Assembly (NCBI GenBank): GCA_038133845.1
Contig: JAYPUA010000015.1
Span: 2,268-66,267 of the forward strand
Direction of reading: 5' to 3'
Origin: Deltaproteobacteria bacterium
Lineage (GTDB): Bacteria > SAR324 > NAC60-12
Length of the DNA: 64,000 nucleotides
Positions 1 through 64,000 of the stretch are shown here, in pieces (within the stretch, counting starts at the first letter, position 1; each line of letters starts with the position of its first letter). Both the position numbers and the translations under genes were made by a program. The notes under the pieces were generated by a model. That model did not search any database, was not told the origin of the DNA, and saw only the letters and a list, made by a program, of their open reading frames with translations.

Positions 1-1
1 C

Positions 2-727
2 CGCTTTGCACATGACCAGGTCTGGGACGAACGCCTTCCGGAGACACGGATGCCGTTCCCCGACCTCGTCAAGCAGGCCTACATGGAGCGCATCAGCCTG
101 GGTGAGCGGGGTTTCTATCGCACTCCCGGGGTCGACTTCAATCGGGAGACCGGGAGCGGCTATCCATTCTTCTACTACACCACCGGGGCTGCGGTGGCCG
201 AGGTGAGCATTGACAGATTCACCGGAAACCTTGCCCTGCGGCGGGCCGACCTGCTGATGGACATCGGCGAGTCCATCAATCCCGGGATCGACCGGGGCCA
301 GGTAATCGGCGGGTTCATCCAGGGCGTCGGTTGGGTCACCAACGAGGAACTGCGCTACTCGAGCGAGGGCGCGCTGCTCTCGCACTCTCCAACCACCTAC
401 AAGATCCCCAACATCCAGGACCTCCCGGAGATGCTGCAGGTGGACTTCATCCACAACCCGAACCACCAGATCAACGTCCGGCGCTCCAAGGCGATTGGCG
501 AGCCGCCGCTGATGCTCTGCATTTCGGTGTGGATGGCCGTCAAGCATGCCCTCTCCTGCGTCAGACCCGGGGTGATTCCCAGACTCAACCTCCCGGCAAC
601 CGGTGAAGAGATTCTCAAGCGGCTCAGCGAATTGGAGGGCTTCCCGGCGTTTCAAACTCCGGAGGCGGAGATTCCCCTGGTCGGAGTGAGCACACCGGCC
701 CCACCGGCCTCCTCCATCGCGGCCTGA
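2..727 (+). CDS. xdhB: Xanthine dehydrogenase molybdopterin-binding subunit, C-terminal part (5' truncated by window edge)
   Basis: Frame is open from position 2. C-terminal motifs GESINPGIDRGQVIGGFIQGVGW, TYKIP and SKAIGEPP are typical of XdhB. Confidence 0.9.
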   Translation, partial: RFAHDQVWDERLPETRMPFPDLVKQAYMERISLGERGFYRTPGVDFNRETGSGYPFFYYTTGAAVAEVSIDRFTGNLALRRADLLMDIGESINPGIDRGQVIGGFIQGVGWVTNEELRYSSEGALLSHSPTTYKIPNIQDLPEMLQVDFIHNPNHQINVRRSKAIGEPPLMLCISVWMAVKHALSCVRPGVIPRLNLPATGEEILKRLSELEGFPAFQTPEAEIPLVGVSTPAPPASSIAA

Positions 728-749
728 CCCCTTCTCAAACTCAGGAGAC

Positions 750-1322
750 GTGATGCGCTGGACCAGATCTCTGCTACACCGGCTGGGCGGAGGGCTCCTG
801 CTTGGAGCGCTCGCCGTGTCCTCGGCCTGGGCCGACCAGAACAGCCCTCGACTCGACGCCCTCTTTGGCCAACTGCACGTCGCCCGGAGTTCCTTTGAGG
901 CCGGGATGCTCGAACAGATGATCTGGGAGGTCTGGATTGAGCACGAAGACCCGCAGGTGCAGCGGCAGATGCGCTCCGCGGCAGACTTCATGAGCGCCCA
1001 GGAGTACGGGTCTGCCTTGGCACTCCTGGACACCGTGGTGGAGCAGGTCCCGGACTATGCCGAGGGCTGGAACCGAAGGGCGACCGTGCGCTTTCTGGCA
1101 GCAGACTACAAGGGGTCGGTAGAGGATATCGACCGCACGCTGGCGCTGGAGCCTCGACACTTCGGTGCACTCTCCGGATTGGGGCAGATCCGCATGATCC
1201 AGCAGCGCCCGGAGGAAGCGCTGGAGGCCTTTGAGCGCGCGCTGGAGGTCAACCCGCACATGCGCTCAGTCCGGACCATCCGAGACCGCCTGAAGCTTGG
1301 TCTGCAGCAGCAGGCCATCTGA
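750..1322 (+). CDS. Secreted tetratricopeptide-repeat protein
   Basis: Signal peptide (LLLGALAVSSAWA) followed by TPR helices (YAEGWNRRATVRF, HFGALSGLGQI, EEALEAFERALEVNP). Confidence 0.85.
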   Translation: MMRWTRSLLHRLGGGLLLGALAVSSAWADQNSPRLDALFGQLHVARSSFEAGMLEQMIWEVWIEHEDPQVQRQMRSAADFMSAQEYGSALALLDTVVEQVPDYAEGWNRRATVRFLAADYKGSVEDIDRTLALEPRHFGALSGLGQIRMIQQRPEEALEAFERALEVNPHMRSVRTIRDRLKLGLQQQAI

Positions 1323-1342
1323 ACCTTCCTGCCCTCCTCCGT

Positions 1343-1588
1343 ATGTCGACCTCGTCCCCTTCGGACACCTCGATCACGCTTGCCCCGCTGCATCGGGTGA
1401 CCTTTACCGTCACTCTCCATCCAGAACAACCTCACGCCGAGACGCGGCAACACGTGTTCTCTCTCCGGAGTCGTGTTCCAGAGCATGTGGAGGACTTCAT
1501 CTCCGCGCGGCTCTGGGATCTCTCCTTGCGCTACGAGTCCTTCTCCAGCAAGCAGTTCACCTACCAACTGGACGCCCTCACCTCCTGA
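1343..1588 (+). CDS. Hypothetical protein (81 aa)
   Basis: ORF fills the gap between the TPR gene and fmt on the same strand; no family recognised. Confidence 0.5.
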   Translation: MSTSSPSDTSITLAPLHRVTFTVTLHPEQPHAETRQHVFSLRSRVPEHVEDFISARLWDLSLRYESFSSKQFTYQLDALTS

Positions 1589-1669
1589 TCTCTTCAAAAA
1601 CGATTTGCGGGTCCGCCCTTTTCTGGGCAAACTAGCCCCTTGGTTCTTGGAGATGGACTTGGAAAGACA

Positions 1670-2718: not shown

Positions 2719-3492
2719 ATGCCCACAGTCATTTCATTTGCCAGCCAGAAAGGGGGCGTGGGGAAAACCACGTCGGCCATTCACCTCGCCTCAGCCTTTG
2801 CGCTCGGGGGCTACCGAACCTTGCTGATGGACCTCGACCCACAAGGCTCGGTTCACTCGGCCCTGGGCATCTCCAAGCGTCCGGAACGGGGAGTGCAGGA
2901 GTTGTTCTGCGACTCCGAGATCCCGATCAAGGACCTGATTCAGCACAGCGAACACGAGAACCTGGAGTACCTGCTCTCCAACATGGGGCAACTGACGGAG
3001 GAGCGAGAGGTATTGCAGGCCGCCTCGGACTACTACTTTCTGACTCAGCGGCTGGAGGAACTCCCGGAGAATGAGTATGACTTCATCCTGATCGACTCTC
3101 CGGCAGCAATCAACTCCTTGAGCATCAACGGCGTGATCGCCGCAGATCTGGTCATCGTTCCGCTCCAGTGCGAGGCCTTGGCCATCAAGTCGCTCAAGCG
3201 CTTCCTGTCGGCCTTCCGCGAGTTGCAGAGCAGCGTGGAACCCAACCTCCGAATCGCCGGGGTGCTGCTGACCATGTACAATCGGGGGATTCGTGCGCAC
3301 CAGCAGGTGGTGAGGCAGGTCTATCAGGCGCTGGGAGACTCGGTCTTTGAGACCATCATCCCGGAGTGTCCTCACATCGTCGAGGCAAGCGCACTGGGAG
3401 TGGATGTGATTCGGCAGCGCCTCAACTCCATCGGAGCGACGGGCTACATTCGGCTGGCCAATGAGTTGCTGGACCGCTTCCGGTTGCGCTAG
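2719..3492 (+). CDS. parA: ParA/Soj family ATPase
   Basis: Deviant Walker A KGGVGKTT, DLDPQGS, IDSPAA and VIVPLQCE motifs. Confidence 0.9.
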   Translation: MPTVISFASQKGGVGKTTSAIHLASAFALGGYRTLLMDLDPQGSVHSALGISKRPERGVQELFCDSEIPIKDLIQHSEHENLEYLLSNMGQLTEEREVLQAASDYYFLTQRLEELPENEYDFILIDSPAAINSLSINGVIAADLVIVPLQCEALAIKSLKRFLSAFRELQSSVEPNLRIAGVLLTMYNRGIRAHQQVVRQVYQALGDSVFETIIPECPHIVEASALGVDVIRQRLNSIGATGYIRLANELLDRFRLR

Positions 3493-4496
3493 CGCTTCTT
3501 GCGGCTGAGATCAAACAGCCTTCCACGCAGTTCTCCAAGGATTTCGTGGATGGGCATGTCCGGCATTTCCTCCCAACCCATCGTCCGGAGAATGTAGGCC
3601 AGCAGCAACGGCCGCCGCATGCCTCGGTCTTCCCAGATGCGGTGAATCTCCTCATGCTCTCGGGGCAGGGGGCGTCCGTCGATGTCGCGGCGCAAGAGAA
3701 ACTTGAGGGCCGAGTCCGGATACTCGCCAACAAACAGGGCCATCGAGGCCGCCGTGATCTCTCCGTTGCCAAAGACCACGTCTGCTTCGTCATCCGTCAC
3801 CTGAGCGAGCCCCAGTTTGCCTCCTTCCAGTTCCTCCAGATCGTCCAACTCGTCGAGATCTCCCGCAGGGAGTTCGACATCCAGCAGGTTGGCCGCAGAG
3901 ACCTCTTCAACAGAAGTCACAACCACTTCTTCCTCCAACGGTTCCTCCTCGAACTCTTCAGAGAGCGCCGCCGCTGAGGTAACTGTCCCCTCTGAATCGT
4001 CTCCGGCGATCTCCGACTCAACAGGAATCTCCAGGCTCTCTTCCGACAGTTCCTCCTGAACCGAGGCTTCTCCGGCCTCCAGTTCTTCGGCTACTGGGAT
4101 CTCCAGATCCTCCTCGGTGGAGGACTCCATTTCCGGACCTTCCTTCCCTGCGGCGCGGCGCCTGCGACGGTGCCCTTCCAGGTAGTCTCGGACGCGGGTA
4201 AAGGGAGGGAGTGGATTTTCAGGGATGAACTCTGGATCCAGAAAACGTCCTGCTCGGCGCAGTCGTTCATAGGTAACCGCAGGGGTCTGTTCGGACGTGT
4301 CCTCAACAAGTCTTAGGATGTCCTGAGGCATCACCCAGCCACTCGCCGGACGAGCCTTCGCCGGAACTCGGGCGCGGGAGGTCTGACGCGATTCATCGGA
4401 GAGGTGCGGGGATTCCGGATCGTGAACGGAGGCTGGGAGGTGGCGTTTCCAGAAGCCGTCCAGCAGAGCTTCGGCCTGGAAGCCGGAGAGAGGCAT
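3489..4496 (-). CDS. Hypothetical protein with long acidic low-complexity central region
   Basis: 335-aa ORF whose ATG overlaps the stop of the upstream flaG-like gene (TGATG). E/D-rich middle, predicted-helical C-terminal domain. Confidence 0.75.
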   Translation of the reverse strand: MPLSGFQAEALLDGFWKRHLPASVHDPESPHLSDESRQTSRARVPAKARPASGWVMPQDILRLVEDTSEQTPAVTYERLRRAGRFLDPEFIPENPLPPFTRVRDYLEGHRRRRRAAGKEGPEMESSTEEDLEIPVAEELEAGEASVQEELSEESLEIPVESEIAGDDSEGTVTSAAALSEEFEEEPLEEEVVVTSVEEVSAANLLDVELPAGDLDELDDLEELEGGKLGLAQVTDDEADVVFGNGEITAASMALFVGEYPDSALKFLLRRDIDGRPLPREHEEIHRIWEDRGMRRPLLLAYILRTMGWEEMPDMPIHEILGELRGRLFDLSRKKR

Positions 4497-4834: not shown

Positions 4835-4835
4835 C

Positions 4836-5303
4836 TCAGGCCTTGTTCTGACGGCGTAGGTTCATCAGCCGACCGGCACGACCGGCACCAGGCTGAATGT
4901 AGTTGACTTGATTGCGCAGTTGTCCGATCTCCCGAGACAGCTCTTGCCGATCCTTTTGGAGACGGGTCATGAACGAGTTTTCGGCTTCTTGAATCTGCTC
5001 CAGCAGTCGAGCCGATAACCGGAGCTGGCGAACCTCCCGATAGTTCGGGGGGCGCCGATGCCGCGCCCCCCAGCTTTCCATAAGCTGGTCCAGCTTCCGG
5101 AGCTCTTCCATGAGCTGCTCTTTCCGACCGAGCAGGAGTTCCAACTCGGCCGGTTCCATCGGTTCTCGAATCGCAAGCTGCTGCTGACTCAGCTCAACCC
5201 ACTGTTTGAGTTGGTCATTCTTGCGTTCGAGGATCAAGATCAAATCGCTGTCCGCGAGTGCTTCATCACTTGCCAATGCAGAACTCAGCGAAGATTTTTC
5301 CAA
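4836..5303 (-). CDS. FlgN/FliT-like coiled-coil flagellar chaperone (start uncertain)
   Basis: Helical heptad pattern (LLGRKEQLMEELRKLDQ; LLEQIQEAENSF) and flagellar context. The TTG start overlaps the mnmE 3' end, so the real start may be later. Confidence 0.55.
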   Translation of the reverse strand: MEKSSLSSALASDEALADSDLILILERKNDQLKQWVELSQQQLAIREPMEPAELELLLGRKEQLMEELRKLDQLMESWGARHRRPPNYREVRQLRLSARLLEQIQEAENSFMTRLQKDRQELSREIGQLRNQVNYIQPGAGRAGRLMNLRRQNKA

Positions 5304-6633
5304 GCAGGTCGTCCGGAGTGGTCGCTCCGACGATGGCCCCCAAGGCGTTGAGAGCCGTCCTCAGGTCCACCGCGAGGCACTCCTCTCCAACGTCCTGCAC
5401 CAGTCCATCTCTCACCCACTCCAACGCCTCCAGCGCTCGCTCTGCGGACTGCTGTTGTCGCAGGTTGGTGATCCAGATCTCTTCTCCTGCGGGGACCTCG
5501 CCCATCATGGCCTTGCGTACCAGCAAGGCTTCCAGCAATTCCAGACCCTCTCCTGTACGGGCGGAGAGCAACACCTGCTCTCCGGGAAGCTCCGGATGCA
5601 GCCAATGTGGAGGCTGAGAGCAAAGATCCATCTTGTTCAGCACAGTCACTGTGCGCTCTGGATCAGCCTCCTCGAGCAGCTGAAGACTCTCCGGACCGAG
5701 CGGGCGCGAGGCGTCCAGCAGGATCAGGGTCAGATCTGCCTGCTGCCAGGCGTTGCGGGATCGACGAATTCCTTCCTGCTCCACCACATCTGCAGTGGTC
5801 CGGATCCCTGCGGTGTCAATGATCCGGAAGGCGAGGCCTTTGAGGTGCAGTCTTTCTTCCAGACTGTCTCGCGTGGTCCCCGGAATCTCTGTGACGATCG
5901 CCCGCTGTTCTCGGAGCAGCGCGTTCATCAGCGAGGACTTCCCCACGTTGGGTTCGCCGATCAATGCAAGCGACACACCTTCGCGCATCCGGCGTCCCTG
6001 GTCCGCATGTTCCAACATGTGACGCAGGTCTGCAGAGGCTTGATCGATGCGCTTCAGGCAGTCCTCGTGATGGGTGAAGACGGTCCCTTCTTCCGGAAAC
6101 TCGATGCAGGCCTCCACTAGCGCCGCGACCTGTGCCACTTGCTCCTCGATCGCCTCAATCGCACGAAAGAGCTTGCCACGCAGCTGGCGGACTGCCACCT
6201 GACGTCCGGACTCGGAGCGCGCGTGGATCAGGTCCGAGACCGCCTCCACCTGGGTCAGGTCCAGTCGGCCGTTCAGGAAGGCTCTCCGGGTAAACTCTCC
6301 TGGCTCCGCGAGCCGGGCTCCGTTTTCCAAAACCATCCGGACCATGGCTTCCAGCGTCAGCGGGCTGCCGTGGCCTTGAATCTCTACAACCGTCTCCGCC
6401 GTGTAGGAGCGGGGGGCGCGCATCACTGCCACCAGGACCTCATCCAAAGGCTCCCCCGCTTTACTCATGATCCAGCCATGACTCAGCCGATGAGACGGCA
6501 CCCGATGCAGATCGGCTCCCTGAAAGTGTGTGGCGACACACTCCACGGCGCGGGGACCGCTGATGCGAAGGACTCCAATTCCGGATGGCTGCGGAGCCGT
6601 CGCGATGGCGACGATGGTATCGTCGAGGTGCAT
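5266..6633 (-). CDS. mnmE: tRNA modification GTPase MnmE
   Basis: DTIVAIATA, PRSYTAE, GEFTRRAFLNGRLDLTQVEAV, GEPNVGKSS, GTTRD, DTAG, NKMD and C-terminal FCIGK. Confidence 0.97.
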   Translation of the reverse strand: MHLDDTIVAIATAPQPSGIGVLRISGPRAVECVATHFQGADLHRVPSHRLSHGWIMSKAGEPLDEVLVAVMRAPRSYTAETVVEIQGHGSPLTLEAMVRMVLENGARLAEPGEFTRRAFLNGRLDLTQVEAVSDLIHARSESGRQVAVRQLRGKLFRAIEAIEEQVAQVAALVEACIEFPEEGTVFTHHEDCLKRIDQASADLRHMLEHADQGRRMREGVSLALIGEPNVGKSSLMNALLREQRAIVTEIPGTTRDSLEERLHLKGLAFRIIDTAGIRTTADVVEQEGIRRSRNAWQQADLTLILLDASRPLGPESLQLLEEADPERTVTVLNKMDLCSQPPHWLHPELPGEQVLLSARTGEGLELLEALLVRKAMMGEVPAGEEIWITNLRQQQSAERALEALEWVRDGLVQDVGEECLAVDLRTALNALGAIVGATTPDDLLGKIFAEFCIGK

Positions 6634-8096
6634 TACATCAGCGAGTGGACGTGTCTCACCGGAATGGAAGCAGCCTGCACATCCAGCAGCACCCGTAGGG
6701 CATTCTCCCGGATGCGATGGCTGTGGGCCAACAAGGCCATGCTCGCCTCGGTCACAATCTGGCGCCGGGTAAAGTCTGCCAGCTCCTTGGCCAGATCCAC
6801 GTCTCGGACAATTGATTCGGCGCTGCCGACGCTTTCCTGAGTCAGCCGCAAGACCGAATCGTGGTGGTCCAGAGAACGCTGTACCGACCCCAGATATCCG
6901 CGCACCGAAAGGAGCTGCTCCGTTGCACCATCAACCATCCGGACGGCATCGGCAGCCGACTGAGGTGAATCAAAATTGATGTCAGCCAGGCTATTGAACC
7001 CGCTGTTGTTCGGAACCCCTCGTCCCAACGCAGAGGAGTGGATGTTGGCCAGCGTGATCGGCATCTGCTGCCCAGCCTCCGTTCCAATCTGGAAGCGCGG
7101 TGCGTTCTGACGTACCGTGATCGAGCCGACACTTCCGGTCGAACTGCCCAAATAGGCGACCTGCAGGCCACTGGTGAACTCGTTGGAGGCCTTTCCAGTC
7201 AGGTAGGCTCCGTTCCCCATCGCCGGTTCTTCGTTGATGGAGCCCGCGATGTCAGTTCCAAAGTACAGCTCCGGTTCATTGGCCGAACTGGTCAGCACCC
7301 CGTCCTTGGACGTTGTGATCATGAACCCCTTGGCCAGTCCGTAGTCCTTGTGCTCAATCCGGATGTCCTCGTCATCATGCGTGATGGCGAGATTCATGTT
7401 TGCGTCCAGCACTGCCTGCGCGAGCCTGGTGTAGAGGCCTTCGGCACTGCTGAGCGGGTTGGCATGCACCGTCACTGCTCGCCCATCCTCCTCTTCGAGC
7501 ACAATTGTCAGTCCGGAGGCGTCATCATCATCCATGCTGCCTTCAAACACGGCACGTCGAGGCAACCGGGTAACCTCCACCGAGTAACCGTTGACCGGCG
7601 AACTCAGTGTCTCGGCTCCAGAGCGGATGAACACCAGCTCCGAGTTGTTGCTCGTTCCGACCGATCCCTGGCTTCCATCCAGCAGGTTCTTCCGACCAAA
7701 CTGGGTATTCCGTGAGAGGCGGTCGATGCCGTCAAGTGCCGTCTTCAATTCACTTTGAAAACCGGCGACGGTTGCCAGATCGTAGGGATCTGTATTTGCG
7801 GCGGCAAGGGCTGTCTGGCGAAGTCCCATGAGCAGTCGGGTCGCTACATTGATCGCATCGTCTGCCGTCTGGACGATGGAAAGCGAGAGTGCCGTATTCT
7901 CCAGAGCCTGTTCCACACTGGCCAACTGGGCCCGTAGTTGCTCCGACAGGATCAGGCTGGCCGGACCATCCGCAGCCCGGGTGAGTTTGCTTCCTGATGC
8001 CAGGCGTTCCAGAGAACGCGCCAGAGCGTTGTGGTTGACCGCAAGGTAATGAAGCGGATCCGGAGTCAGGCCGTCATTGCGTATTCCCAGAATCAT
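6633..8096 (-). CDS. Divergent long flagellin-like protein (487 aa)
   Basis: SLERLASGSKLTRAADGPASL, NTQFGRKNLLDGS, FQIG and IVRDVDLAKELADF; degenerate termini and a C-terminal extension. Confidence 0.85.
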   Translation of the reverse strand: MILGIRNDGLTPDPLHYLAVNHNALARSLERLASGSKLTRAADGPASLILSEQLRAQLASVEQALENTALSLSIVQTADDAINVATRLLMGLRQTALAAANTDPYDLATVAGFQSELKTALDGIDRLSRNTQFGRKNLLDGSQGSVGTSNNSELVFIRSGAETLSSPVNGYSVEVTRLPRRAVFEGSMDDDDASGLTIVLEEEDGRAVTVHANPLSSAEGLYTRLAQAVLDANMNLAITHDDEDIRIEHKDYGLAKGFMITTSKDGVLTSSANEPELYFGTDIAGSINEEPAMGNGAYLTGKASNEFTSGLQVAYLGSSTGSVGSITVRQNAPRFQIGTEAGQQMPITLANIHSSALGRGVPNNSGFNSLADINFDSPQSAADAVRMVDGATEQLLSVRGYLGSVQRSLDHHDSVLRLTQESVGSAESIVRDVDLAKELADFTRRQIVTEASMALLAHSHRIRENALRVLLDVQAASIPVRHVHSLM

Positions 8097-8189: not shown

Positions 8190-9101
8190 TCAGGCGTTGA
8201 TCAAGCGCATCACGTTTTGTGGCATCACGTTGGCTTGAGCCAACTGAGCCATGGCGGACTGCGTCATGATCTGGTTCCGGGTGAACGTGGCCATCTCGGA
8301 GGCCATGTCCGTATCCCGGATCACCGACTCGGCTGCGGTCAAGTTCTCCTGAGCGACACGCAGGCTGGTCAGGTTGCTCTCCAGAGTGTTTTTCTGGAAG
8401 GCACCCAGCTCCCCACGGATGGTGGCGATCTGCTGAATCGCTGCGTCCACCATGCCGATGGAATCCTGAGCCCCGCTAGTCGATGTCACGTCGATGTCTG
8501 CCAAGGAGGCGAAGCCACTTCCGTTGCTCACCGACTCTACGGTCTTGCCCACCATCCGGCCGTTTTCACGCTGAATCGTGACGTTGAAGCCCAGATTCTG
8601 GGAAGCGACGCTGGGCAGTTCCACCGAGGTGGTCTGTCCGGCGTTTGCTCCAACCTGGAAGCTCAGGGTGGAGTTCTCTCCATTGAGCAGCTTCTTGCGG
8701 GCAAACTGCGTGTTGTCAGCAATCCGGTCGATGGCCATCAGGGCGTTCTCGATCTCTTGCTGGGAAGCCTCACGCATGGCCTCATCGTTGGTTCCTTCGT
8801 TGGAAGCGGCGATGGCCTGCTGGCGGATGTCGACGAGCAATCGACCCACTTCGTTCAGAGCGCCTTCTGCGGTCTGGACCATGGTGACGGCCGCTTCGTT
8901 GTTGCGAGTTGCCTGCTCCAACCCGCTGACCTGAGCCCGCATGTACTCCGAGATCACCAGGCTGGCAGGGCCATCTGCACCCCGGTTGATCTTCAGACCT
9001 GAAGACAAGCGCTCCAGGCTCTTGCCCATAGCTTCGGAGTTTTGGGTAAGGTTGCGGTGAGCAATGTTGGCACCGACGTTGTTGTTGATGCGAAGAGTCA
9101 T
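8190..9101 (-). CDS. fliC: Short flagellin (303 aa)
   Basis: LRINNN, SLERLSSGLKINRGADGPA, FQVGAN, RGELGAFQ, ESVIRDTDMASEM, AQLAQAN. Confidence 0.95.
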   Translation of the reverse strand: MTLRINNNVGANIAHRNLTQNSEAMGKSLERLSSGLKINRGADGPASLVISEYMRAQVSGLEQATRNNEAAVTMVQTAEGALNEVGRLLVDIRQQAIAASNEGTNDEAMREASQQEIENALMAIDRIADNTQFARKKLLNGENSTLSFQVGANAGQTTSVELPSVASQNLGFNVTIQRENGRMVGKTVESVSNGSGFASLADIDVTSTSGAQDSIGMVDAAIQQIATIRGELGAFQKNTLESNLTSLRVAQENLTAAESVIRDTDMASEMATFTRNQIMTQSAMAQLAQANVMPQNVMRLINA

Positions 9102-9104
9102 AAT

Positions 9105-9200
9105 TCCTCTTTAGGGTCAAGAAGTTGAGTAGAGATTCCTCCTGGAAATAAGCATCTCCTCCAATGAGATGCTCTCAACGTGGGATCCACCTTCCGATGG
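9105..9200 (-). promoter_or_regulatory. Flagellin 5' leader with GGA-containing hairpin (putative CsrA sites)
   Basis: Minus strand AGCATCTC-ATTGGAG-GAGATGCT stem with GGA in the loop, plus CCAGGAGGAA. Similar to the leader of the 12613 flagellin. Confidence 0.4.
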
Positions 9201-9301
9201 TGTCGCTTAGAACCTGATGTCAATTTCAGGCCTTTCCCATGCTCCTCTTGGAGCTGCGACTGACGAAACCTGCTCGGAACCTCCGCAACCGGCTAAGGAG
9301 C

Positions 9302-9323
9302 GGACCACCGTCCATGGCAATCC
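9302..9323. promoter_or_regulatory. Conserved 22-nt motif ~200 bp upstream of flagellin, copy 1
   Basis: GGACCACCGTCCATGGCAATCC; 20/22 identical to 12810-12831. Confidence 0.55.
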
Positions 9324-9370
9324 GCGTAAGCGGGAACCGAGGCTTTCGCCACAATAAAGACGTGTTGCCT

Positions 9371-9682
9371 TCAGCAGTACTGCGTTGACAACAGACGTTG
9401 CAAGGCCTGAGACGCCTGCTCCAGTCCCAGCCCGGAGCCTTCACTGCCGGAAGGGGCCGAGGCCGCCAGCGCACTTGCAACAGGGAGCTTGATGGAGACC
9501 GGTCCCAAGGCATCAAGCCGGGAACCCAGCCGGGATTCTCGATTCACACAACGGTCAATCGAGTCCAATGCGGCCTGAACCGCAAAAGCCTCACCTATCC
9601 CGGGGGATTCCGGGATCTCGGATTGCGGCTTTAACACGCGTCGGAGGTTCAGTTCCGAGCGGTCTTGAGGATCACGCCACAT
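9371..9682 (-). CDS. Orphan small protein A (103 aa), paralog of 12852-13190
   Basis: ATG preceded by AGGAG. Shares MW.D, ALDSIDR/ALESIDR and C-terminal E.A.QAL..LLST..C with its paralog. Confidence 0.7.
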   Translation of the reverse strand: MWRDPQDRSELNLRRVLKPQSEIPESPGIGEAFAVQAALDSIDRCVNRESRLGSRLDALGPVSIKLPVASALAASAPSGSEGSGLGLEQASQALQRLLSTQYC

Positions 9683-9706
9683 GTGCTTGCTCCTGAAAGT
9701 TGAGAA

Positions 9707-9771
9707 GCCCCCTTCTCCTGAATCAAGGTGCCTTCCCATGGCTCGCTCGAAACTTGAGCGGAGAAGGGGGC
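9707..9771. ncRNA. Conserved structured element, copy 1 (unknown class)
   Basis: 12-bp closing stem GCCCCCTTCTCC/GGAGAAGGGGGC around a core shared with 13214-13280. Confidence 0.5.
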
Positions 9772-9945
9772 AATAGTGGTAAAATAAGAGCTTCCTCGAG
9801 TCGTCACCAACGGGACTGCTGGAGGAAGTTTACGATGCGCGGGCCAAGCGGCATCGAATTCCAGAGAGCGTGTGGAGAGAAAGGTCCTCCGGACCGCTCC
9901 TGTATTTCGAGGGACCTTCCGTGAATCGGAGAGCCCCTGAGAGTC

Positions 9946-10167
9946 TCAGCACCCGCATTTGCGGGTAAAAAAGTTCTTGATCGCGCGTTGTTCATCTTCA
10001 ATCGCGCTGCAGTAGTTCGAGCAGCCAGAGTTGGTGCTGCAAGCTCCGAGGCCGATCAGGAGGACCAGGAGGCCTCCGATCAGGCGAATTCTCCAAGAGA
10101 GCGTTTCCCTGGAGCAGCTGTCTCCTGGGTTCAGTCTCAACATCGTGGAGTGCACCAGGCTCCTCAT
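9946..10167 (-). CDS. Small Cys-rich lipoprotein
   Basis: ATG directly follows the stop of the M24 gene. Hydrophobic stretch with lipobox LGAC; mature 31-aa peptide with 4 further Cys. Confidence 0.55.
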   Translation of the reverse strand: MRSLVHSTMLRLNPGDSCSRETLSWRIRLIGGLLVLLIGLGACSTNSGCSNYCSAIEDEQRAIKNFFTRKCGC

Positions 10168-11319: not shown

Positions 11320-11687
11320 GACTCCTGTTCAGTTCAGAGTGAAAGCCGAGGCCGCCTTGATGAAGACTCCGGAGCGTTCCGGAGTTCACGGGGCAACCTT
11401 TTGGAACAGGGCGAGACACAATCGAAAGCCGAGGCTTGCGTTTGGTTCTGTACGGACAGATTCGTTGTGCCGCCCCCTGATCCCGAAAGTCACGAGATTC
11501 CGGAGGGCTTGGCTTCCATGCACGGAACAACAGATGTCAAAGAACAAGGCGACAGAGGCGGTCACTTCCTGTGGTGCCTGTGGGCGTCACCAGTGAAGGT
11601 CCGAAGGGGCTCTTCAGGCCTTCGCTGGAGGCGTCCAGCACAACGTCGGGAGCTTAGAGTCGAAGCTCCAAGCTCCCGGCGAATCCT

Positions 11688-11712
11688 TCCAGGCAGGGAG
11701 TCCCTGCCTGGA
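11688..11712 (-). terminator. Strong hairpin downstream of the flagellin at 11723
   Basis: TCCAGGCAGGG/CCCTGCCTGGA 11-bp stem 10 nt after the stop. Further stems at 11648-11677. No clear U-tract. Confidence 0.45.
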
Positions 11713-11722
11713 GAGAGTGTGT

Positions 11723-18358: not shown

Positions 18359-20008
18359 TCACCCTTGGGGACGAATGCAGGTCTGGGCCGAGACTCCGGC
18401 CGCTCGCAGTTGGGCCTTCTGCACCTTGTTCGTGGGCGTTTTGGGGAGCACATCCACGAGTTCGAGGTACAGAGGCTGCATGGTTTTTGGAAGTCGACTC
18501 TGGCAAAAGGCCCAGATCGACTCCGGACTTGGCACTTTTTGAGCGTGAGGAACAATCACCAGCTTAATCTCGTCCTCTCCTCCGGCAATTTCCGAAGGAA
18601 CGGCAATCGCCGCCACTTCGGCAACTTCCGGATGCTCCAGCAGGGCGGACTCCACCTCGAAGGAGGAGATGTTCTCCCCGCGACGGCGGATGCAGTCCTT
18701 GATGCGGTCCACAAAGTAGAAGTAGCCGTCGTCATCGACACGGCCCGCATCTCCGGTGTGAAACCAGAAGTTGCGACACGCCTCCACAGTCTTCTCCGGA
18801 AGGCCATGGTATCCCTGCATGAAGCCATAGGGTTGCCGCGGGCGTACACAGATCTCGCCGACGTGATTCGGCGAGAGCGGTTCATCCGTCTCGGGATGGA
18901 GTACGGACACTTCATAAAATCGTTCCCAAGGCTTCCCGCAGCTTCCCGGACGCGGAGCTTCCAGCGGGGTGTAGAGTGGAATGTTCACCTCCGTCATCCC
19001 GTAGAGTTCGATGAAGTGTCGGACTCCGAAGCGTTGCTTGAACGGCTCCACCTGCTCTGGCGGAAGCGGTGCGGCAGTCACCACGCGCAAGGAGTGGTCG
19101 CCCTCCTGCTCGGACGGCGGTTGGCGGAGGAGAAACTCCACCATCACTCCAAGTGTGTTGGTGACGGTACACCCGTGATTCCGGATGTCTGCCAGCCACT
19201 CCGAGGCGCTGAAGCGTTCCCGGAGCACGGCCGTCATTCCACCGATGAGCACCGCGTAAAGCTGCATGAACAGGGCGTTTGCGTGAAATAGAGGAAGACA
19301 GATGTAGTACACATCGTCTTCCTGCAGCTCCAGATTGCAGATGCTTCCCAGCCCAAACAGGTAGTTGTGGGCATGCGGCATCAGCACCCCCTTGGAAGGT
19401 CCTGTGGTTCCCGAGGTGTAGAGGATGGAGGCGATGTCCTGATAAGACACCTCCCCGGCCTCTTCCGGAGGACCCGCCACCTCGCTCAGAAGTTCTCCCA
19501 GAAATACCTGCTTGATGACACGCCCGGCGCTTGCAGGGAGTGGTCTTCGGAGTCCAAGAGGCTCCGGAGAAGATCGCGCAGCATGCAGGGTGGGCGGACA
19601 GACCACCACGACCTGCAGGTCTTGCAACTCTTCGGAAATCTCGCTCAAGTTGTCCAAGAACTCGGGAACCGTGAACAGCACACGGGCCTGACTGTTGACC
19701 AGCACGTGCTTCAGAAAGCTCCCTCGGTATTCCAGATTGACCGCGACGTGGATTGCTCCCAGACGCGCACACGCCAGCCAGGCCAGCACGTGCGGCAGTC
19801 CATTCGGAAGCAGCAGCGCCACGCGATCTCCGAAACCGACGTCCAGGCGCTTCAAGCCATGAGCTAGCTGATTCGCCTGTACGTCCGCATCGGAGTAGGT
19901 CAGAGCCTCCCCCTGCGTCGTCTTTACAAAAACCTTGTCCGGTCGTTGATGAGCCCTACAAGATAGTTGGACTCCCAGCGACCATTCCTTGACAGAATGG
20001 TGGACCAT
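18359..20008 (-). CDS. AMP-dependent CoA ligase, CaiC-like
   Basis: YTSGTTGPSKG, YGMTE, WFHTGDAG, YFVDRIKDCIRRRGENISSFEVE and PKTPTNK. Confidence 0.9.
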   Translation of the reverse strand: MVHHSVKEWSLGVQLSCRAHQRPDKVFVKTTQGEALTYSDADVQANQLAHGLKRLDVGFGDRVALLLPNGLPHVLAWLACARLGAIHVAVNLEYRGSFLKHVLVNSQARVLFTVPEFLDNLSEISEELQDLQVVVVCPPTLHAARSSPEPLGLRRPLPASAGRVIKQVFLGELLSEVAGPPEEAGEVSYQDIASILYTSGTTGPSKGVLMPHAHNYLFGLGSICNLELQEDDVYYICLPLFHANALFMQLYAVLIGGMTAVLRERFSASEWLADIRNHGCTVTNTLGVMVEFLLRQPPSEQEGDHSLRVVTAAPLPPEQVEPFKQRFGVRHFIELYGMTEVNIPLYTPLEAPRPGSCGKPWERFYEVSVLHPETDEPLSPNHVGEICVRPRQPYGFMQGYHGLPEKTVEACRNFWFHTGDAGRVDDDGYFYFVDRIKDCIRRRGENISSFEVESALLEHPEVAEVAAIAVPSEIAGGEDEIKLVIVPHAQKVPSPESIWAFCQSRLPKTMQPLYLELVDVLPKTPTNKVQKAQLRAAGVSAQTCIRPQG

Positions 20009-20899: not shown

Positions 20900-20914
20900 A
20901 TTCCTCCTGGATGA

Positions 20915-24641: not shown

Positions 24642-24710
24642 GGCAATTCGTGCTGCAAACGTACGGACTTGCCGCCGCTCAGGCAGAAATTGCCGTTGCG
24701 GGAAACCTGC

Positions 24711-24777
24711 AAGCCTCTGAAAAAATTGGCTCTCTTCATTTGCGTCGTGCGGACGCAAAGGGAGCACTCAGAGGCTT
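24711..24777. other. Long imperfect hairpin in the flagellin-fliD intergenic region
   Basis: AAGCCTCTGA/TCAGAGGCTT outer stem, GCTC/GAGC middle, TTTGCGTC/GACGCAAA inner stem. Confidence 0.5.
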
Positions 24778-46093: not shown

Positions 46094-46122
46094 CTTCACT
46101 CCGAAACAAACAGGAATGTCAC

Positions 46123-46875: not shown

Positions 46876-46887
46876 CCCCGGAGCCTT

Positions 46888-59865: not shown

Positions 59866-60090
59866 ATGACGCCATCGGAACAGAAGATCGAACAGTACCA
59901 TGCGATCGTCGGAGACGATACCAGCTATCGCTTTGAGCACAAGATCGCTCAGGCGGTTCAGGAACTGGCAGAGTCCTTGGAGAACAACTTCATGGACGAT
60001 GAGGCCAAAGTCGACTATGCCACCCACGTGTTCGCAAAAATGCTGGACGATCTCGCAGACTTTCTGGAAAATCCTCGCTTGATCAATTGA
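59866..60090 (+). CDS. Small acidic helical hypothetical protein (74 aa)
   Basis: GGAG RBS, protein-like composition, TGA overlaps the next ATG. Confidence 0.7.
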   Translation: MTPSEQKIEQYHAIVGDDTSYRFEHKIAQAVQELAESLENNFMDDEAKVDYATHVFAKMLDDLADFLENPRLIN

Positions 60091-61481
60091 TGGGAACTCC
60101 TTCGCCCGAGGCTCTTCGGGCGTGGCTGGAGCAACAACGCCTGCGACATGGACTCCAACTGTTTGGAGTCAGCTTCCTCGGAGCCGCCTCCGGGTTGCTG
60201 GTGCTGTTTCTCTGGTCAGACTCTCCGGCTCTGGAGCACTGGTTCCTGGCCAACCTGGCGCTCCTGTTGCTGTGCCTCGCAGGAAGCTGGTCTCTCAGCG
60301 AGCGCTTCTTCTCCTCACGACTCGCCCGGAAACATCCGGAACTTGCCGAGTCCCTGAGAACCCTGCAAGACCTGGAGTCCACTTCGGCCTCAGGGCCGGA
60401 GTTTGTCTTCTTCCGAGAGCAGCACCGGCGTCGGACCGAGCAGAGCCTGCAGGGCCCTGCCTCCGGGTTTCGCTCCTCCTGGAAGGGGCCCTTCGCGCTG
60501 GCGGTGCTGGTGCAGTGCCTGTGGTTCGCGGCGCTCTGGTGGGTGCCCGGAAATCCGGAATTTCTCGCTTGGCGAGACGGACCGCCGGTGAACCTGCAGG
60601 AATCCTATCGCCTCCTCTACCCCTCCTACTTGAACCGAGAGCCCCTGGTCTTGGAGCAGCTTCCGGAACGCCTCTCTCTTCCACAGGGAACCCGGCTGGA
60701 GATTTTGGCCGCGGAAGCCCCGGAAGACCGCAGCCGCTTTGAAATTCCCGGTCGGAAGCCGGAGCCTCTGCGCTGGTTTGAACAGCAGGGGCACTGGATG
60801 ACCGCCATCGCCCCGGACCTCTCCGGAATCCTGACCTTGCAGTGGAAACGCCTGCAACTTCCGGTTGAGGTCGTCCCGGATCAGGCGCCGGAGCTGCTGG
60901 TCATCTGGCCCAGCCTGGAGCACATCTTCGACAGTTCTCCCCTGCCTGTGGACCTGAGCACTTCAGACGATCATGCGCTGCTCAACATCATCCTTCACTA
61001 TCAGGTGGAGTTGACCGGAGATCCCTACCGAGAGATCATCCAAGCCTTCGAGACCCCTGTCCGGGAGCATCAGGAACTGTACATCTGGGAGCTCTCCGGG
61101 ACGCCGCTCAAGGCCGGAGACAACGTCACCGCCTGGATCGAGGTCAGCGACCGGGACACGCTGAACGGGCCGCACATTGCGCGATCCCAGGAGTTTCGCT
61201 TTCAGGTGGAGAGCCTCAAGGAGTTCCACGAGCGGTTGCTCGCCAAGTTCTGGAAGGTCGACGAGGAGCTGCGCACACTCCTGGGATATCTGGACCAAAA
61301 GGTCCTTCCAGAGACCGCCCTCCAGGAAGAGGCGATCGACGCGCTGCTTGAAGAGATCCAGCGGGACATGGTGTGGGACCTGCTGCTCTCAGATGCCCTC
61401 AAGAACCTGACCCGGGAGATGCGCTCCAAGCTTGAATACTACCGAGAGCAGCGACAGCTTTCCGGCTCGCGTCCCAGCTAG
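60087..61481 (+). CDS. Membrane-anchored protein, DUF4175-like
   Basis: N-terminal TM pair; VVPDQAP, SDDHAL and W.EVSDRDTLNGP...S.EF motifs. Confidence 0.65.
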   Translation: MMGTPSPEALRAWLEQQRLRHGLQLFGVSFLGAASGLLVLFLWSDSPALEHWFLANLALLLLCLAGSWSLSERFFSSRLARKHPELAESLRTLQDLESTSASGPEFVFFREQHRRRTEQSLQGPASGFRSSWKGPFALAVLVQCLWFAALWWVPGNPEFLAWRDGPPVNLQESYRLLYPSYLNREPLVLEQLPERLSLPQGTRLEILAAEAPEDRSRFEIPGRKPEPLRWFEQQGHWMTAIAPDLSGILTLQWKRLQLPVEVVPDQAPELLVIWPSLEHIFDSSPLPVDLSTSDDHALLNIILHYQVELTGDPYREIIQAFETPVREHQELYIWELSGTPLKAGDNVTAWIEVSDRDTLNGPHIARSQEFRFQVESLKEFHERLLAKFWKVDEELRTLLGYLDQKVLPETALQEEAIDALLEEIQRDMVWDLLLSDALKNLTREMRSKLEYYREQRQLSGSRPS

Positions 61482-61564: not shown

Positions 61565-61664
61565 TGACGCTAGTCAGCTTAAATGGATTTAGGCCGCGGT
61601 ACGCATTGGAAGCAGTCAGGAGTTCTGTCCGAACAGAGCCTCACCCTCCTTTCAATGAGGTCGC

Positions 61665-61751
61665 ATGATGAAATTCCTGGAGGTCGTTGAGCCCATTGCC
61701 GCCATCTTTGCCTTTCTTGGCACGATCGCGACTTTCGCCTTCTTCTACTGA
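61665..61751 (+). CDS. 28-aa single-helix membrane peptide MMKFLEVVEPIAAIFAFLGTIATFAFFY
   Basis: GAGG RBS, hydrophobic helix, own promoter; below the ORF-track cutoff. Confidence 0.6.
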   Translation: MMKFLEVVEPIAAIFAFLGTIATFAFFY

Positions 61752-61966
61752 GCGCATGACCTCATCGTCTGGTGCGCTGCTCTTGCGCCCAACTCGGAGA
61801 CTCAGGGGTGGCCTCTCATCGGGCAGACCACTGAGCCTCTGAGTCCAGGCCTCCCTTCTTCACGCCCTTTCCTCCAGCTTCTTCAAGCCCTACACGTCAT
61901 CGCCTGAAACCGGCAGACCCCCCTATGGCAGGTTGCGCAAGCCAGCCTTGAGACAAGCGCTGCCGT

Positions 61967-63898
61967 TCATTTCGAAGGGATTTCTCCGGCGAGATGTTCT
62001 GGCAAACCGGACTCTGTCTGAGAGAGTTTCTGGATCAAGTCTTCCGGGATGTCATCGAACGAGGCGTAGTTGAGCGAGTAGAGCCGGGCGTAGAGTCCCC
62101 CCAGTTCCATCAACTCGCCATGACTTCCAGTCTCAATGATCTGCCCGTCCTGCAGAACGATGATCTGGTCGGCCTTGCGCACCGTCGCCAGTCGGTGTGC
62201 AATGATCAGGGCGGTTCGATTTTCCAGCAGCCGGTCCAAGGCTTCCTGCAGCAACCGCTCGCTCTTCGAGTCGATTGATGCCGTGGCCTCGTCGAGGATC
62301 AGCAGCGGCGCGTTGGTCACCAGCGCCCGCGCAAAGGAGATCAACTGGCGCTGCCCAAGCGAGAGGTTGGACCCACGCTCTTCCACGACCGTTTCGTAGC
62401 CGTTGGGCAGGGCGCTGATGAACTCGTGTGCCCCCACGATCTTCGAGGCCCGGATGACGTCCTCCCGACTGGCGGAGGCGGTGTTGTAGCGGATGTTCTC
62501 CAGGAGTGAGGTGGAGAAGAGGTAGGGTTCCTGAAGGACCATCGCGATCTGGCGGCTCAGTGAATCCTGGGTCAGGCTCCTGATGTCGTGGCCGCCAATC
62601 CGGATCTGCCCCTCAAAGGTGTCGTAGAAGCGGTGGATCAGTGAGGCGATTGAGGATTTCCCACATCCGGTGGGTCCGACCAGGGCCACGGTCTTTCCTT
62701 CCGGAATCTCCAGGTGGATCTGACGCAGCACCGGATACTGAGGGTTGTAGCCGAAGGTCACGTCCTCAAAGTCTACCGACCCGCTGGTACGGCCAACGTC
62801 TTGTGCAGAGGGACTGTCCGTAATCCCTACCGGGACATCGAGCACCTCGAAGATGCGCTCTCCGGAAGCCATGGCGCGCTGGAAGGCGTTGTAATGCAGC
62901 GTGAGCGCCCGGATCGGGTCAAAGAACCGCTGAACGTACAGGATGTAGGCGATCATGACCCCGGCGGTCAGTTCGCCCTGCAGCACCAGGCTGCCTCCCA
63001 CCAGGGCGATGATCGCCATGGCCACGCCGGTCAGGGTGTCCACCGTGGGGAGCATGATCTGCGCGATGGCCGCCGCCCGGACTGTGGCCACAAAGTGATC
63101 GTTGGCCTTGATCTCATAGAGATCGCGGTTGACCCGCTCTCGGGTCATGCCCTGAACCACCTTGATGCCCCGGATGTTCTCACACATCGTCGCCGTGACC
63201 ACGGACGACGTGATCCGGGCGCGCACAAAGGCCTTGCGCGCAATCGGGAGCCAGTAGATCCGGATGATCAGCAAAACCGGAAGCAAGGCCAGGGTCATGG
63301 CTCCCAGGCGCAGGTCCATCCAAAGCAGGACAAAGATGATTCCAAACAGCAGGATCAGGTCCCCAATCGCATAAACCAGCGCCTCCAGAAACTCCTGAAG
63401 CGCCCCGACGTCTCCTTGCAGGCGTGACATCAGCCGTCCGGTTTCGGTCTTGTCCATGAACGACAGGGAGACGCGTTGCAGGTGTTCAAACATTCCGCGA
63501 CGGAGGTCGAAGAGCAGTCGCTGGGCAACCCGGGAGACCAGCAGTTCCATACCAAAGTGGCTCATGAAGTTCACAAGAACCACCAAGGCAAAGAGCAGAA
63601 TGCCGAACTCCAAGGAGCTGAGATTGGACAGTCCCCCGAGCTCTCCATCCAAGGTCTTTTGGATGATGAGGGGGAACAGGACCTGCGTCAGGGTGTAGAC
63701 CATGAGCCCCAACACTGCAATCAGCACGGTCTTCCGGTAAGGATGAATGAGGTCCAGAAACCGCTTCACCACATCCTGGTTGTAACCTGAGCTGAACATG
63801 TCCTCTTCGGCCACCTCCGGAGGGGGAGCAACCGCCCCAGGAGGCAAGGGATCGTCCGCCAGGTGGCGGTGCATGAAGAGCAGGGAGCGCTGGCTCAT
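61967..63898 (-). CDS. ABC exporter (TMD+NBD half transporter, MsbA/multidrug type)
   Basis: TM domain, GPTGCGKSS, LSLGQRQLISFARA, ILDEATASID and IAHRLAT. Confidence 0.93.
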   Translation of the reverse strand: MSQRSLLFMHRHLADDPLPPGAVAPPPEVAEEDMFSSGYNQDVVKRFLDLIHPYRKTVLIAVLGLMVYTLTQVLFPLIIQKTLDGELGGLSNLSSLEFGILLFALVVLVNFMSHFGMELLVSRVAQRLLFDLRRGMFEHLQRVSLSFMDKTETGRLMSRLQGDVGALQEFLEALVYAIGDLILLFGIIFVLLWMDLRLGAMTLALLPVLLIIRIYWLPIARKAFVRARITSSVVTATMCENIRGIKVVQGMTRERVNRDLYEIKANDHFVATVRAAAIAQIMLPTVDTLTGVAMAIIALVGGSLVLQGELTAGVMIAYILYVQRFFDPIRALTLHYNAFQRAMASGERIFEVLDVPVGITDSPSAQDVGRTSGSVDFEDVTFGYNPQYPVLRQIHLEIPEGKTVALVGPTGCGKSSIASLIHRFYDTFEGQIRIGGHDIRSLTQDSLSRQIAMVLQEPYLFSTSLLENIRYNTASASREDVIRASKIVGAHEFISALPNGYETVVEERGSNLSLGQRQLISFARALVTNAPLLILDEATASIDSKSERLLQEALDRLLENRTALIIAHRLATVRKADQIIVLQDGQIIETGSHGELMELGGLYARLYSLNYASFDDIPEDLIQKLSQTESGLPEHLAGEIPSK

Positions 63899-63906
63899 GG
63901 TTCCGT

Positions 63907-64000
63907 TCAGTCCAGAGTTTGCAGTCGATAGAGCTGGGCATAGTGTCCTCCGAGCTTGAGGAGTGCCTCGTGGTCTCCTTGCTCTTGAATCTGCCCGTGC
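63907..64000 (-). CDS. C-terminus of an upstream ABC half transporter (truncated by window edge)
   Basis: Reads HGQIQEQGDHEALLKLGGHYAQLYRLQTLD*, a typical NBD tail. Confidence 0.8.
   Translation of the reverse strand, partial: HGQIQEQGDHEALLKLGGHYAQLYRLQTLD

Follow-up and report, generated by a model that had tools for sequence, protein, structure and literature searches.

TCCGGA as the Probable Peak of a Lineage-Specific Oligonucleotide Signature in SAR324 Bacteria

Introduction

HIP1 (GCGATCGC), a highly iterated palindrome (HIP) of cyanobacteria, occurs 15–300-fold over expectation, and the conservation of its sites between genomes is the key evidence that it is under selection (Xu et al. 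2018, PMC5861425). In alternate HIPs such as GCCGGC and GGCGCC, a methyltransferase core is enriched only in an extended context, a pattern for which a methylation-directed ratchet model has been put forward (Elhai 2015, PMC4390886). Here, we analyze a further iterated palindrome, TCCGGA, in a 64,000-nucleotide stretch of DNA from a bacterium of the SAR324 lineage (GenBank assembly GCA_038133845.1, contig JAYPUA010000015.1, positions 2,268 to 66,267), referred to below as the window. An original prediction made from the letters of the window had likened TCCGGA to HIP1. We lean toward reading it instead as the high point of an oligonucleotide signature particular to the SAR324 lineage, not as a set of discrete functional elements, and this signature is best read as a heritable, context-specific bias in mutation or repair.

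Word frequencies are also shaped by very-short-patch (VSP) repair and by DNA uptake. In the Dcm/Vsr system of Escherichia coli, VSP repair raises CCWGG and lowers CTAG-type words, and Vsr-type enzymes work as monomers and recognize an asymmetric context of 5 bp. The DNA uptake sequences (DUS) of Neisseria and the uptake signal sequences (USS) of Pasteurellaceae are non-palindromic 9–12-mers that are enriched at least 100-fold and often form inverted pairs at terminators.

Results

Abundance of TCCGGA in the Window

A direct count finds 159 TCCGGA sites (2.48 per kb) in the window, which has a guanine-plus-cytosine (GC) content of 0.603. TCCGGA is the most frequent of all 4096 hexamers, and the runner-up among palindromes, CTGCAG, occurs 60 times. 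Every one of the ten sites originally listed for the first 3 kb was found, and the reported count of seven between 22.8 and 24.6 kb is exact (sites at 23016, 23451, 23571, 23959, 24011, 24019, and 24391). The sites start at the following positions.

1–10 kb: 37, 658, 1173, 1270, 1464, 1693, 1903, 2233, 2533, 2880, 3584, 3715, 4132, 4414, 5096, 5312, 5591, 5690, 5799, 5823, 6092, 6205, 6336, 6580, 6938, 7358, 7512, 8059, 9888
10–20 kb: 10681, 10788, 10917, 11368, 11378, 11499, 12149, 12509, 13036, 13141, 13455, 13789, 14240, 14609, 14696, 15141, 15829, 15952, 16220, 17364, 17464, 18341, 18522, 18627, 18795, 19180, 19464, 19563
20–30 kb: 20147, 20387, 20595, 21948, 23016, 23451, 23571, 23959, 24011, 24019, 24391, 25486, 26384, 26966, 27251, 28945, 29075, 29626, 29884
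30–40 kb: 30497, 30870, 31417, 31487, 31603, 32074, 32200, 32239, 32395, 34135, 34367, 34381, 34825, 35281, 35599, 35793, 36152, 36338, 36347, 36575, 37612, 37778, 37974, 37991, 38903, 39561, 39870
40–50 kb: 40370, 40718, 41009, 41714, 42217, 42357, 42538, 42630, 43751, 43948, 44221, 44614, 45528, 46284, 46942, 47011, 47798, 47979, 48161, 48620, 48758, 49329, 49366, 49843
50–64 kb: 50984, 51638, 52150, 52516, 52629, 52770, 53013, 53352, 53936, 54005, 54551, 54802, 55029, 55302, 55336, 55884, 56249, 56602, 56888, 57143, 57272, 58591, 58801, 60335, 60554, 60662, 60822, 62599, 62700, 62861, 63259, 63816

A zero-order Markov model predicts 20.9 sites, or 1 per 3.07 kb, corresponding to an observed-to-expected ratio (O/E) of 7.6. 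The earlier estimate of about 1 per 3 kb was accurate, although the GC content of ~62% given with it was not. The ratio falls to 5.7 with an order-1 model and 2.7 with an order-2 model. Control for tetranucleotide content (order 3) leaves an O/E of 1.66 (95.9 sites expected), and control for pentanucleotide content (order 4) reduces it to 1.05 (151.8 expected). The excess that had been anticipated beyond 4–5-mer content is thus present for 4-mers and gone for 5-mers.

Codon-aware expectations were obtained by shuffling synonymous codons inside each gene, which preserves the protein sequence and the per-gene codon usage. Genes were called with a self-trained codon model and cross-checked against Pfam/NCBIfam matches and the gene calls of the genome collection for the identical contig. 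The window genes contain 130 TCCGGA sites versus 40.3 expected (standard deviation 5.8, z = 15.5), an O/E of 3.2; with 55 gene calls, the values are 141 and 39.9 (O/E ~3.5). When codons are conditioned on the 1, 2, or 3 preceding nucleotides, the O/E remains at 2.9, 2.5, or 2.4, with z at least 11.8. TCCGGA tops all 4096 hexamers by codon-shuffle z. The view that a preferred dipeptide does not account for the word is upheld by the 3.2–3.5-fold excess that survives this shuffle.

The mild enrichment noted earlier for TCCAGA/TCTGGA is also seen, with 83 occurrences versus 56 in the codon-aware null (1.49) and 96 versus 85.5 under the order-4 model. TCNNGA words, which had been suggested as a family, show no enrichment as a family in the window analysis. 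Placement of TCCGGA along the window is near random and slightly even (coefficient of variation of the spacing 0.91 versus 0.99 for random placement, P = 0.14).

The Enriched Unit Is the Half-Site TCCGG/CCGGA

CCGG, which is its own reverse complement, occurs at 757 sites in the window (1514 counts on both strands). Both strands together carry 678 TCCGG/CCGGA half-sites, and the half-sites have no strand bias (330 TCCGG and 348 CCGGA on the plus strand of the window). The base 5' of CCGG is T in 45% of cases, irrespective of whether A follows. By comparison, T precedes CC in 31% and CCGA, CCGC, or CCGT in 27–32% of cases. Because T is preferred before CCGG but not before these other words, the context spans five bases.

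Does the full palindrome add anything to its two halves? In a table of NCCGGN words on both strands, TCCGGA occurs 318 times versus 303.6 expected from independent flanks. The window and four relatives give ratios of 1.05, 1.21, 1.14, 1.05, and 1.39, and L004, a contig described below, gives 0.63. The codon-aware O/E values of NCCGGN words fit a multiplicative model with per-flank factors of 1.8 for T, 1.03 for C, 0.78 for G, and 0.73 for A. Given this independence and the order-4 O/E of 1.05, the palindrome is not the enriched unit. Shorter words do not qualify either. Under the codon-shuffle null, the CCGG excess of 164 is covered by the excess of T- and A-flanked CCGG (140 + 130 − 90 = 180), and the TCCG excess of 127 is roughly matched by the TCCGG excess of 140, indicating that no word below the pentamer is enriched by itself. 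The unit is therefore the half-site TCCGG/CCGGA, and the palindrome TCCGGA is a by-product, the coincidence of two favored flanks.

Sequence information outside the hexamer is weak; in the window, C occupies position −2 at a frequency of 0.39. This base varies by sub-lineage: the window favors C (CTCCGGAG), and two relatives introduced below, L091 and L093, favor T at 0.43 (TTCCGGAW), although the numbers are small.

Two other candidates were rejected. Avoidance of RCCGGY (Cfr10I-type) sites is not the cause, as RCCGGY occurs 140 times versus 136 expected from independence. An oriented signal of the Chi or KOPS kind is incompatible with the nearly equal half-site counts on the plus strand.

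The Bias Acts on DNA and Not on Translation

TCCGGA had been reported in all three codon phases, and each phase shows an excess under the synonymous shuffle: 40 versus 15.4 for TCC-GGA, 21 versus 9.7 for xTC-CGG-Axx, and 69 versus 15.2 for xxT-CCG-GAx. We also pooled 8.0 kb of intergenic DNA (GC 0.54), delimited by the collection's own gene calls, from L001 (the window's match), L084 (GCA_038150265.1), and L085 (a contig from ENA). It contains 18 TCCGGA sites, again the top hexamer, with an O/E of 8.0 at order 0 and 2.2 at order 3. An example from the window is the following spacer.

11320..11722, no strand: intergenic spacer with three TCCGGA sites (11368, 11378, 11499)

Every phase shows the excess, and intergenic DNA shows it just as strongly; its cause therefore acts on DNA and not on codon pairs. 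Across six loci, 28 intergenic sites lie in diverse contexts, with no longer palindrome, hairpin, repeat, or inverted partner around them. Embedding of TCCGGA in longer repeats or hairpins was rejected on these grounds.

Lineages That Carry the Excess

Relatives were found through two anchor genes in the window.

5266..6633, minus strand: mnmE, used for taxonomic placement (SAR324) and as anchor for relatives
18359..20008, minus strand: acyl-CoA ligase gene with 6 TCCGGA sites, anchor for syntenic relatives

The MnmE protein of the window has 59–60% identity to many proteins listed at NCBI under the name SAR324 cluster bacterium. The window also shares with those genomes a distinctive gene order: FliD (~1070 amino acids), FliS, M24 peptidase, two flagellins, MnmE, two unknown genes, and a NUDIX gene. 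Metagenomes containing the window sequence come from estuary, lagoon, and salt-lake samples. SAR324 Group 1 consists of motile, heterotrophic aquifer/estuarine members (PMC9031357). The window organism would fit this group as a high-GC estuarine member of SAR324.

Three loci (L001–L003) are 99.6–99.9% identical to the window and thus too close for substitution analysis. TCCGGA ranks first among hexamers in each of the more distant syntenic high-GC relatives, at 2.7 per kb in GCA_038150265.1 (L084 and L089), 1.5–2.1 per kb in the ENA contigs L085/L086, and 2.8 per kb in the groundwater contig L091. It also ranks first in the syntenic relative L093 (GC 0.52), at 1.4 per kb. The codon-aware O/E is 4.0 in GCA_038150265.1, 2.9 in L085, 5.2 in L091, and 2.0 in L093.

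A metagenome scan with MnmE gave no closer relatives of the window and brought up low-GC SAR324 loci. In these pelagic SAR324, among them NCBI-named metagenome-assembled genomes (GC 0.42–0.435; L174, L175, and L176, and also JGI loci L094–L096 and L098), TCCGGA occurs at 1.5 per kb, with an order-0 O/E of 8.4–9.4. The ratio is 1.7–1.95 at order 3 and 1.06–1.11 at order 4, and the codon-aware O/E is 3.0–3.5, with all phases contributing. Three low-GC loci each hold 4 intergenic sites versus 0.5 expected.

Outside SAR324, the excess is absent from about 140 control loci. We reused the 80 matches from a genome-collection scan with fructuronate reductase as composition controls, and the 79 proteobacterial control loci contain 0–0.8 TCCGGA sites per kb. 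Among 68 metagenome loci of at least 4 kb, the median is 0.2 per kb and the top four are SAR324-like loci. Metagenome-scan control loci with a GC content of 0.55–0.66 reach at most 0.57 per kb. These distributions mark the signature as an old and heritable one that does not depend on GC content or codon usage and is specific to most of the SAR324 phylum. Heritability within the lineage is in line with a cause at the DNA level, for instance repair or modification, of the kind originally suggested.

At the protein level, MnmE has 11–15 amino-acid-compatible positions in the enriched lineage versus 9.2 in other homologues. No such difference is seen for the acyl-CoA ligase (13, 10, and 10 versus 10.0 ± 2.8).

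L004 (CAZQXS010000062.1) is labeled "uncultured Pseudomonadota". T precedes CCGG there at a frequency of 0.45, its three commonest hexamers are TCCGGG/CCCGGA and TCCGGA, and its uxaC and fructuronate reductase genes share ~72–75% nucleotide identity with those of the window. From these features, L004 is probably a relative of the window's lineage.

Turnover of Individual Sites

We compared the positional conservation, S, of TCCGGA with that of control hexamers, following the HIP1 study (PMC5861425). In an 18 kb codon alignment of the window with GCA_038150265.1 (70% identity), S is 0.224 for TCCGGA versus 0.188 for controls (rank 124 of 378), and 32% of GC-matched control hexamers score above TCCGGA. 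For L084 versus L085/86 (16 kb, 83% identity), S is 0.49 versus 0.417 (rank 62 of 263), and for L174 versus L175 (14 kb, 74% identity) it is 0.18 versus 0.26 (rank 198 of 269). TCCGGA sites are therefore no better conserved than control hexamers in these three pairs of relatives, in contrast to HIP1.

Codon conservation in the window and GCA_038150265.1 is similar inside and outside sites for TCC (0.33 and 0.31), GGA (0.33 and 0.28), CCG (0.46 and 0.45), and CGG (0.40 and 0.28). Where the amino acids of both orthologues are compatible with a site, the relative has one at 53% of positions if the window does and at 42% if it does not, so that occupancy shows no correlation between orthologues. 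Between relatives, one-off differences are spread over all positions of TCCGGA and are not clustered at its ends. Single-nucleotide polymorphisms (SNPs) among strains (0.3–0.5% divergence; 40 of 111 SNP places listed, 20 kb) include one in a TCCGGA site (13040 G>A) versus 0.7 expected, a comparison that has no power. Gain and loss of individual sites proceed at the background rate, and the density stays constant.

Magnitude Relative to Other Genomes

Across 49 loci of ~21 kb taken from other bacteria as controls, the highest zero-order O/E reached by any hexamer has a median of 6.95 and a maximum of 10.1. Because control hexamers reach ~7 at order 0, the raw ratio of ~8 for TCCGGA is not exceptional. 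What sets TCCGGA apart is its absolute count and its codon-aware z. With a matching gene-finder and shuffle, the top hexamers of 24 control loci have z values of 3.4–8.0 and O/E values of 1.5–2.75; TCCGGA reaches z values of 9.7, 10.0, and 6.8 and O/E values of 3.8, 3.8, and 2.7 in the three thirds of the window. The effect is genuine but modest, at or just past the upper end of ordinary context biases and roughly twofold the strongest bias of any hexamer in control genomes.

Comparison with Described Systems

Like HIP1 and the alternate HIPs, TCCGGA is a GC-rich palindrome, the top word of its length, and typical of a clade, and it occurs in all reading frames and in non-coding DNA. Its core, CCGG, resembles that of alternate HIPs (PMC4390886) in being enriched only in an extended context. 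The likeness to HIP1 nevertheless breaks down in three respects. TCCGGA is a hexamer and not an octamer, with an excess of 3–8-fold and not 15–300-fold; the full palindrome has no excess over independent half-sites; and the sites are not conserved between genomes. HIPs of the cyanobacterial type also go with a DNA methyltransferase cognate to the motif or its core and with chromosomal periods of 10–90 kb; over the 64 kb of the window, TCCGGA is spaced almost randomly and a little evenly.

TCCGGA resembles DUS/USS in being a short word that is over-represented genome-wide, at ~1–2 per kb, including inside genes. Unlike these elements, it is palindromic, carries little information beyond 6–8 bp, and lacks an inverted partner at intergenic sites. 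The Dcm/Vsr system illustrates how a repair enzyme reading 5 bp could shape word frequencies genome-wide without functional sites. The TCCGGA case differs in that the diagnostic depletion of deamination neighbors is missing and the favored base lies outside the CCGG core.

The closest resemblance is to a Karlin-type genome signature of di- to tetranucleotides. The TCCGGA bias extends through coding and non-coding DNA, is uniform and strand-symmetric, and recurs in relatives but not in other lineages; its positions are unconserved. It departs from such signatures in its unusually long informative context (the 5-bp half-site), in its strength (codon-aware z of 7–10 per 21 kb versus 3.4–8.0 for the top words of the 24 controls), and in an O/E that is held across a ~20-point GC range inside one phylum.

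Other Features of the Window

Several other features of the window were recorded.

6633–8096, 8190–9101, 11723–12613, and 24825–26582: four flagellin paralogues
20459–21370: two tandem FliS genes
21417–24767: FliD, unusually long (about 1074–1116 amino acids)
35266–38181: fructuronate reductase and UxaC genes, with 11 TCCGGA sites in 3 kb, as dense as anywhere in the window
46096–48378 (minus), 60090–61481 (plus), 3489–4496 (minus), and 14261–15265 (minus): long open reading frames (ORFs) without a Pfam/NCBIfam match

FliD length and flagellar gene order are common to the window and pelagic SAR324 genomes, and the called FliD length differs in near-identical strains (1113 versus 1074 amino acids). 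Contigs from other samples join 8407 to 12492, omitting 4,084 bp between the flagellin paralogues at 8190–9101 and 11723–12613; likely origins of this junction are recombination, deletion, or a collapse of the paralogues during assembly. One further contig joins 968 to 3580.

Among species-representative genomes, the nearest relatives of the uronate-catabolism genes are in Alpha- and Betaproteobacteria (50–59% identity), besides L004 (64%) and the SAR324-labeled L005 (55%). If these genes were acquired, they have been fully ameliorated. The 760-residue ORF at 46096–48378 runs antisense to genes with good support and is probably spurious; the ORFs at 60090–61481, 3489–4496, and 14261–15265 are of unknown function and conserved in relatives.

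Some palindromes are depleted. In coding DNA of the window, GAGCTC occurs 5 times versus 35.8 expected, CTCGAG 9 versus 33.5, and CAGCTG 13 versus 41.8. In GCA_038150265.1, CGCGCG occurs 0 times versus 11 expected and GCGCGC 3 versus 13.6, and several palindromes are at zero in L091. These species-specific depletions look like footprints of species-specific restriction systems, unlike the shared TCCGGA excess.

Discussion

Our preferred explanation, a heritable bias in mutation or repair, would operate as follows. The starting point is the strand-symmetric preference at the DNA level for T immediately 5' of CCGG (equivalently, A immediately 3'), ~1.8-fold per flank relative to codon-aware expectation, with purines 5' of CCGG disfavored ~0.75-fold (G 0.78, A 0.73). 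As the two flanks act independently, TCCGGA, in which both are favorable, becomes the commonest hexamer. A context-specific bias in mutation or mismatch processing could continually regenerate half-sites; one candidate agent would be an enzyme that recognizes an asymmetric stretch of 5 bp on a single strand and may be linked to modification of CCGG-family sites. A bias of this kind is favored by elimination of the other mechanisms considered below.

Several observations weigh against this explanation. No enzyme or mutational mechanism was identified from the window and the relatives' loci. In codon-aware comparisons of five gene sets, no single-step neighbor of TCCGG is clearly depleted (O/E values of 1.23 for TCTGG, 1.12 for TCCAG, 0.84 for TTCGG, 1.28 for CCCGG, 0.76 for TCGGG, and 0.72 for TACGG). 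The source of new sites would thus have to be diffuse, and simple deamination or VSP models do not fit. T at position 1 is coupled to G at position 5 over a span of 5 bp, beyond ordinary nearest-neighbor mutational context, a reach that would be in keeping with protein recognition, also by a protein working via selection. Counts per 2-kb bin are slightly even (variance/mean 0.63, range 0.6–0.7, in the 3rd–5th percentile of frequent hexamers), which selection on density would also predict. Conservation tests on 14–18 kb per pair leave room for weak selection on individual sites. Finally, the excess is absent in four SAR324-labeled or MnmE-related loci (L005, L092, L097, and L099); L005, which is SAR324 JCVI-SC AAA005, has 0.14 sites per kb and an order-0 O/E of 0.69, and L092 (GC 0.48) is not syntenic.

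Domains of methyltransferases, Vsr, and restriction enzymes are absent from the window (Pfam/NCBIfam) and from the relatives' loci (Pfam lists). Repair-type genes in the window encode MutY, a weakly AlkA-like HhH-GPD glycosylase, and NUDIX proteins. We found nothing relevant in the literature on TCCGGA over-representation or SAR324 methylation. No N6-methyladenine or N4-methylcytosine motifs were reported in three "Deltaproteobacteria" metagenome-assembled genomes whose identity is unconfirmed (Hiraoka 2022).

Other explanations must be weighed against the same data. Codon usage, dipeptide content, or a translational preference for codon pairs is a very improbable source of the excess. TCC, GGA, CCG, and CGG are all favored codons in the window, and amino-acid adjacency raises the expectation 1.6-fold (from 24.7 to 40.3), as it also does in homologues from other lineages. 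However, a 2.4–2.9-fold excess survives even the junction-context models, on top of that surviving the synonymous shuffle, and a matching excess at 42% GC accompanies quite different codon usage. The intergenic and low-GC results thus refute this by-product as a sufficient cause. Recognition of the whole palindrome by a protein dimer, for instance an orphan methyltransferase cognate to it or a nucleoid protein, with sites kept by selection, would account for a GC-rich top hexamer that is present in all frames and intergenic DNA, persists over deep divergence and GC contents, and is spaced with a slight evenness that echoes the regular density of HIP1. We consider it improbable, as TCCGGA does not exceed the product of its half-sites, neither sites nor codons within them show extra conservation, the magnitude is 3–4-fold versus 15–300-fold for HIP1, and no methyltransferase was found near any locus. 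VSP-type hitch-hiking, in which over-correction of T to C by a Vsr-like T:G endonuclease, at CCGG or TCCGGA targets of an m5C (5-methylcytosine) methyltransferase, would inflate the target word, seems a shade less credible still. Monomeric enzymes of this type, with their asymmetric 5-bp context, match the half-site behavior, and TCTGGA/TCCAGA, which arise by CpG transition, are slightly elevated, as if decaying from an abundant parent. Yet in the window, GCA_038150265.1, L085, L091, and L093, TCTGG/CCAGA is not depleted (1.23, 1.10, 1.18, 1.09, and 0.92), and TTCGG/CCGAA stands at 0.84, 0.79, 0.74, 1.27, and 0.95. Moreover, the bias concerns the base outside CCGG (T versus purines), and transition repair cannot make T from A or G; the window also has no vsr or m5C methyltransferase gene. 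A related origin of T-flanked sites, deamination of CCCGGG or CCNGG, was discarded, since CCCGG shows no depletion (1.28, 1.05) and the low forms are those with a purine flank.

Diffuse selection on half-site density, with positions free to drift, deserves more weight than these, although we still judge it unlikely. The half-site could serve as a strand-discrimination or nicking signal in mismatch repair, as in Elhai's model of alternate HIPs, bias self-recognition or uptake, or load a chromosome organizer. A constant order-0 O/E of ~8 in genomes of 42–62% GC, the even distribution, and recognition over 5 bp are all in keeping with this, and CCGG is over-represented only with a T or A flank, much as in Elhai's methyltransferase-core pattern (PMC4390886). 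Against it, we found no evidence of methylation, competence, or a binding factor. One-off differences are not concentrated at word ends, in contrast to Elhai's model; a 5–6 bp word at 8-fold excess is a weak self-marker compared with the 9–12-mer DUS/USS; and the evenness lies merely in the 3rd–5th percentile of frequent hexamers. A more specific form of the mutation or repair bias is perhaps a little easier to accept, though it too is tentative: SAR324 may carry a conserved modification or mismatch-processing enzyme that reads TCCGG and drives T-flanked CCGG to a fixed equilibrium (~8-fold over base composition) at any GC content, and lineages of the L005 and L092 type would have lost it.

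These results bear on the debate over iterated palindromes, in which selection on HIP1 sites is set against regeneration by biased repair. SAR324 offers a contrasting natural case. Its pattern, which is clade-wide, GC-independent, and found in every frame and intergenic DNA with neither site conservation nor cooperativity, is the expected look of pure replenishment. If a TCCGG-reading enzyme exists, it would represent a neutral "molecular ratchet" form of iterated palindrome outside cyanobacteria, and comparing the gene content of SAR324 lineages with and without the excess could point to the enzyme responsible. In practical terms, the fraction of CCGG preceded by T (about 0.45–0.55) is a simple marker of SAR324-type contigs, including mislabeled ones such as L004, and the abundance of TCCGGA (BspEI/Kpn2I-type) sites is relevant to future genetics of this uncultured phylum. 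Overall, TCCGGA appears to belong to the SAR324 genome signature as an element of unusual length and strength, an iterated word that is seemingly maintained without selection on its sites.

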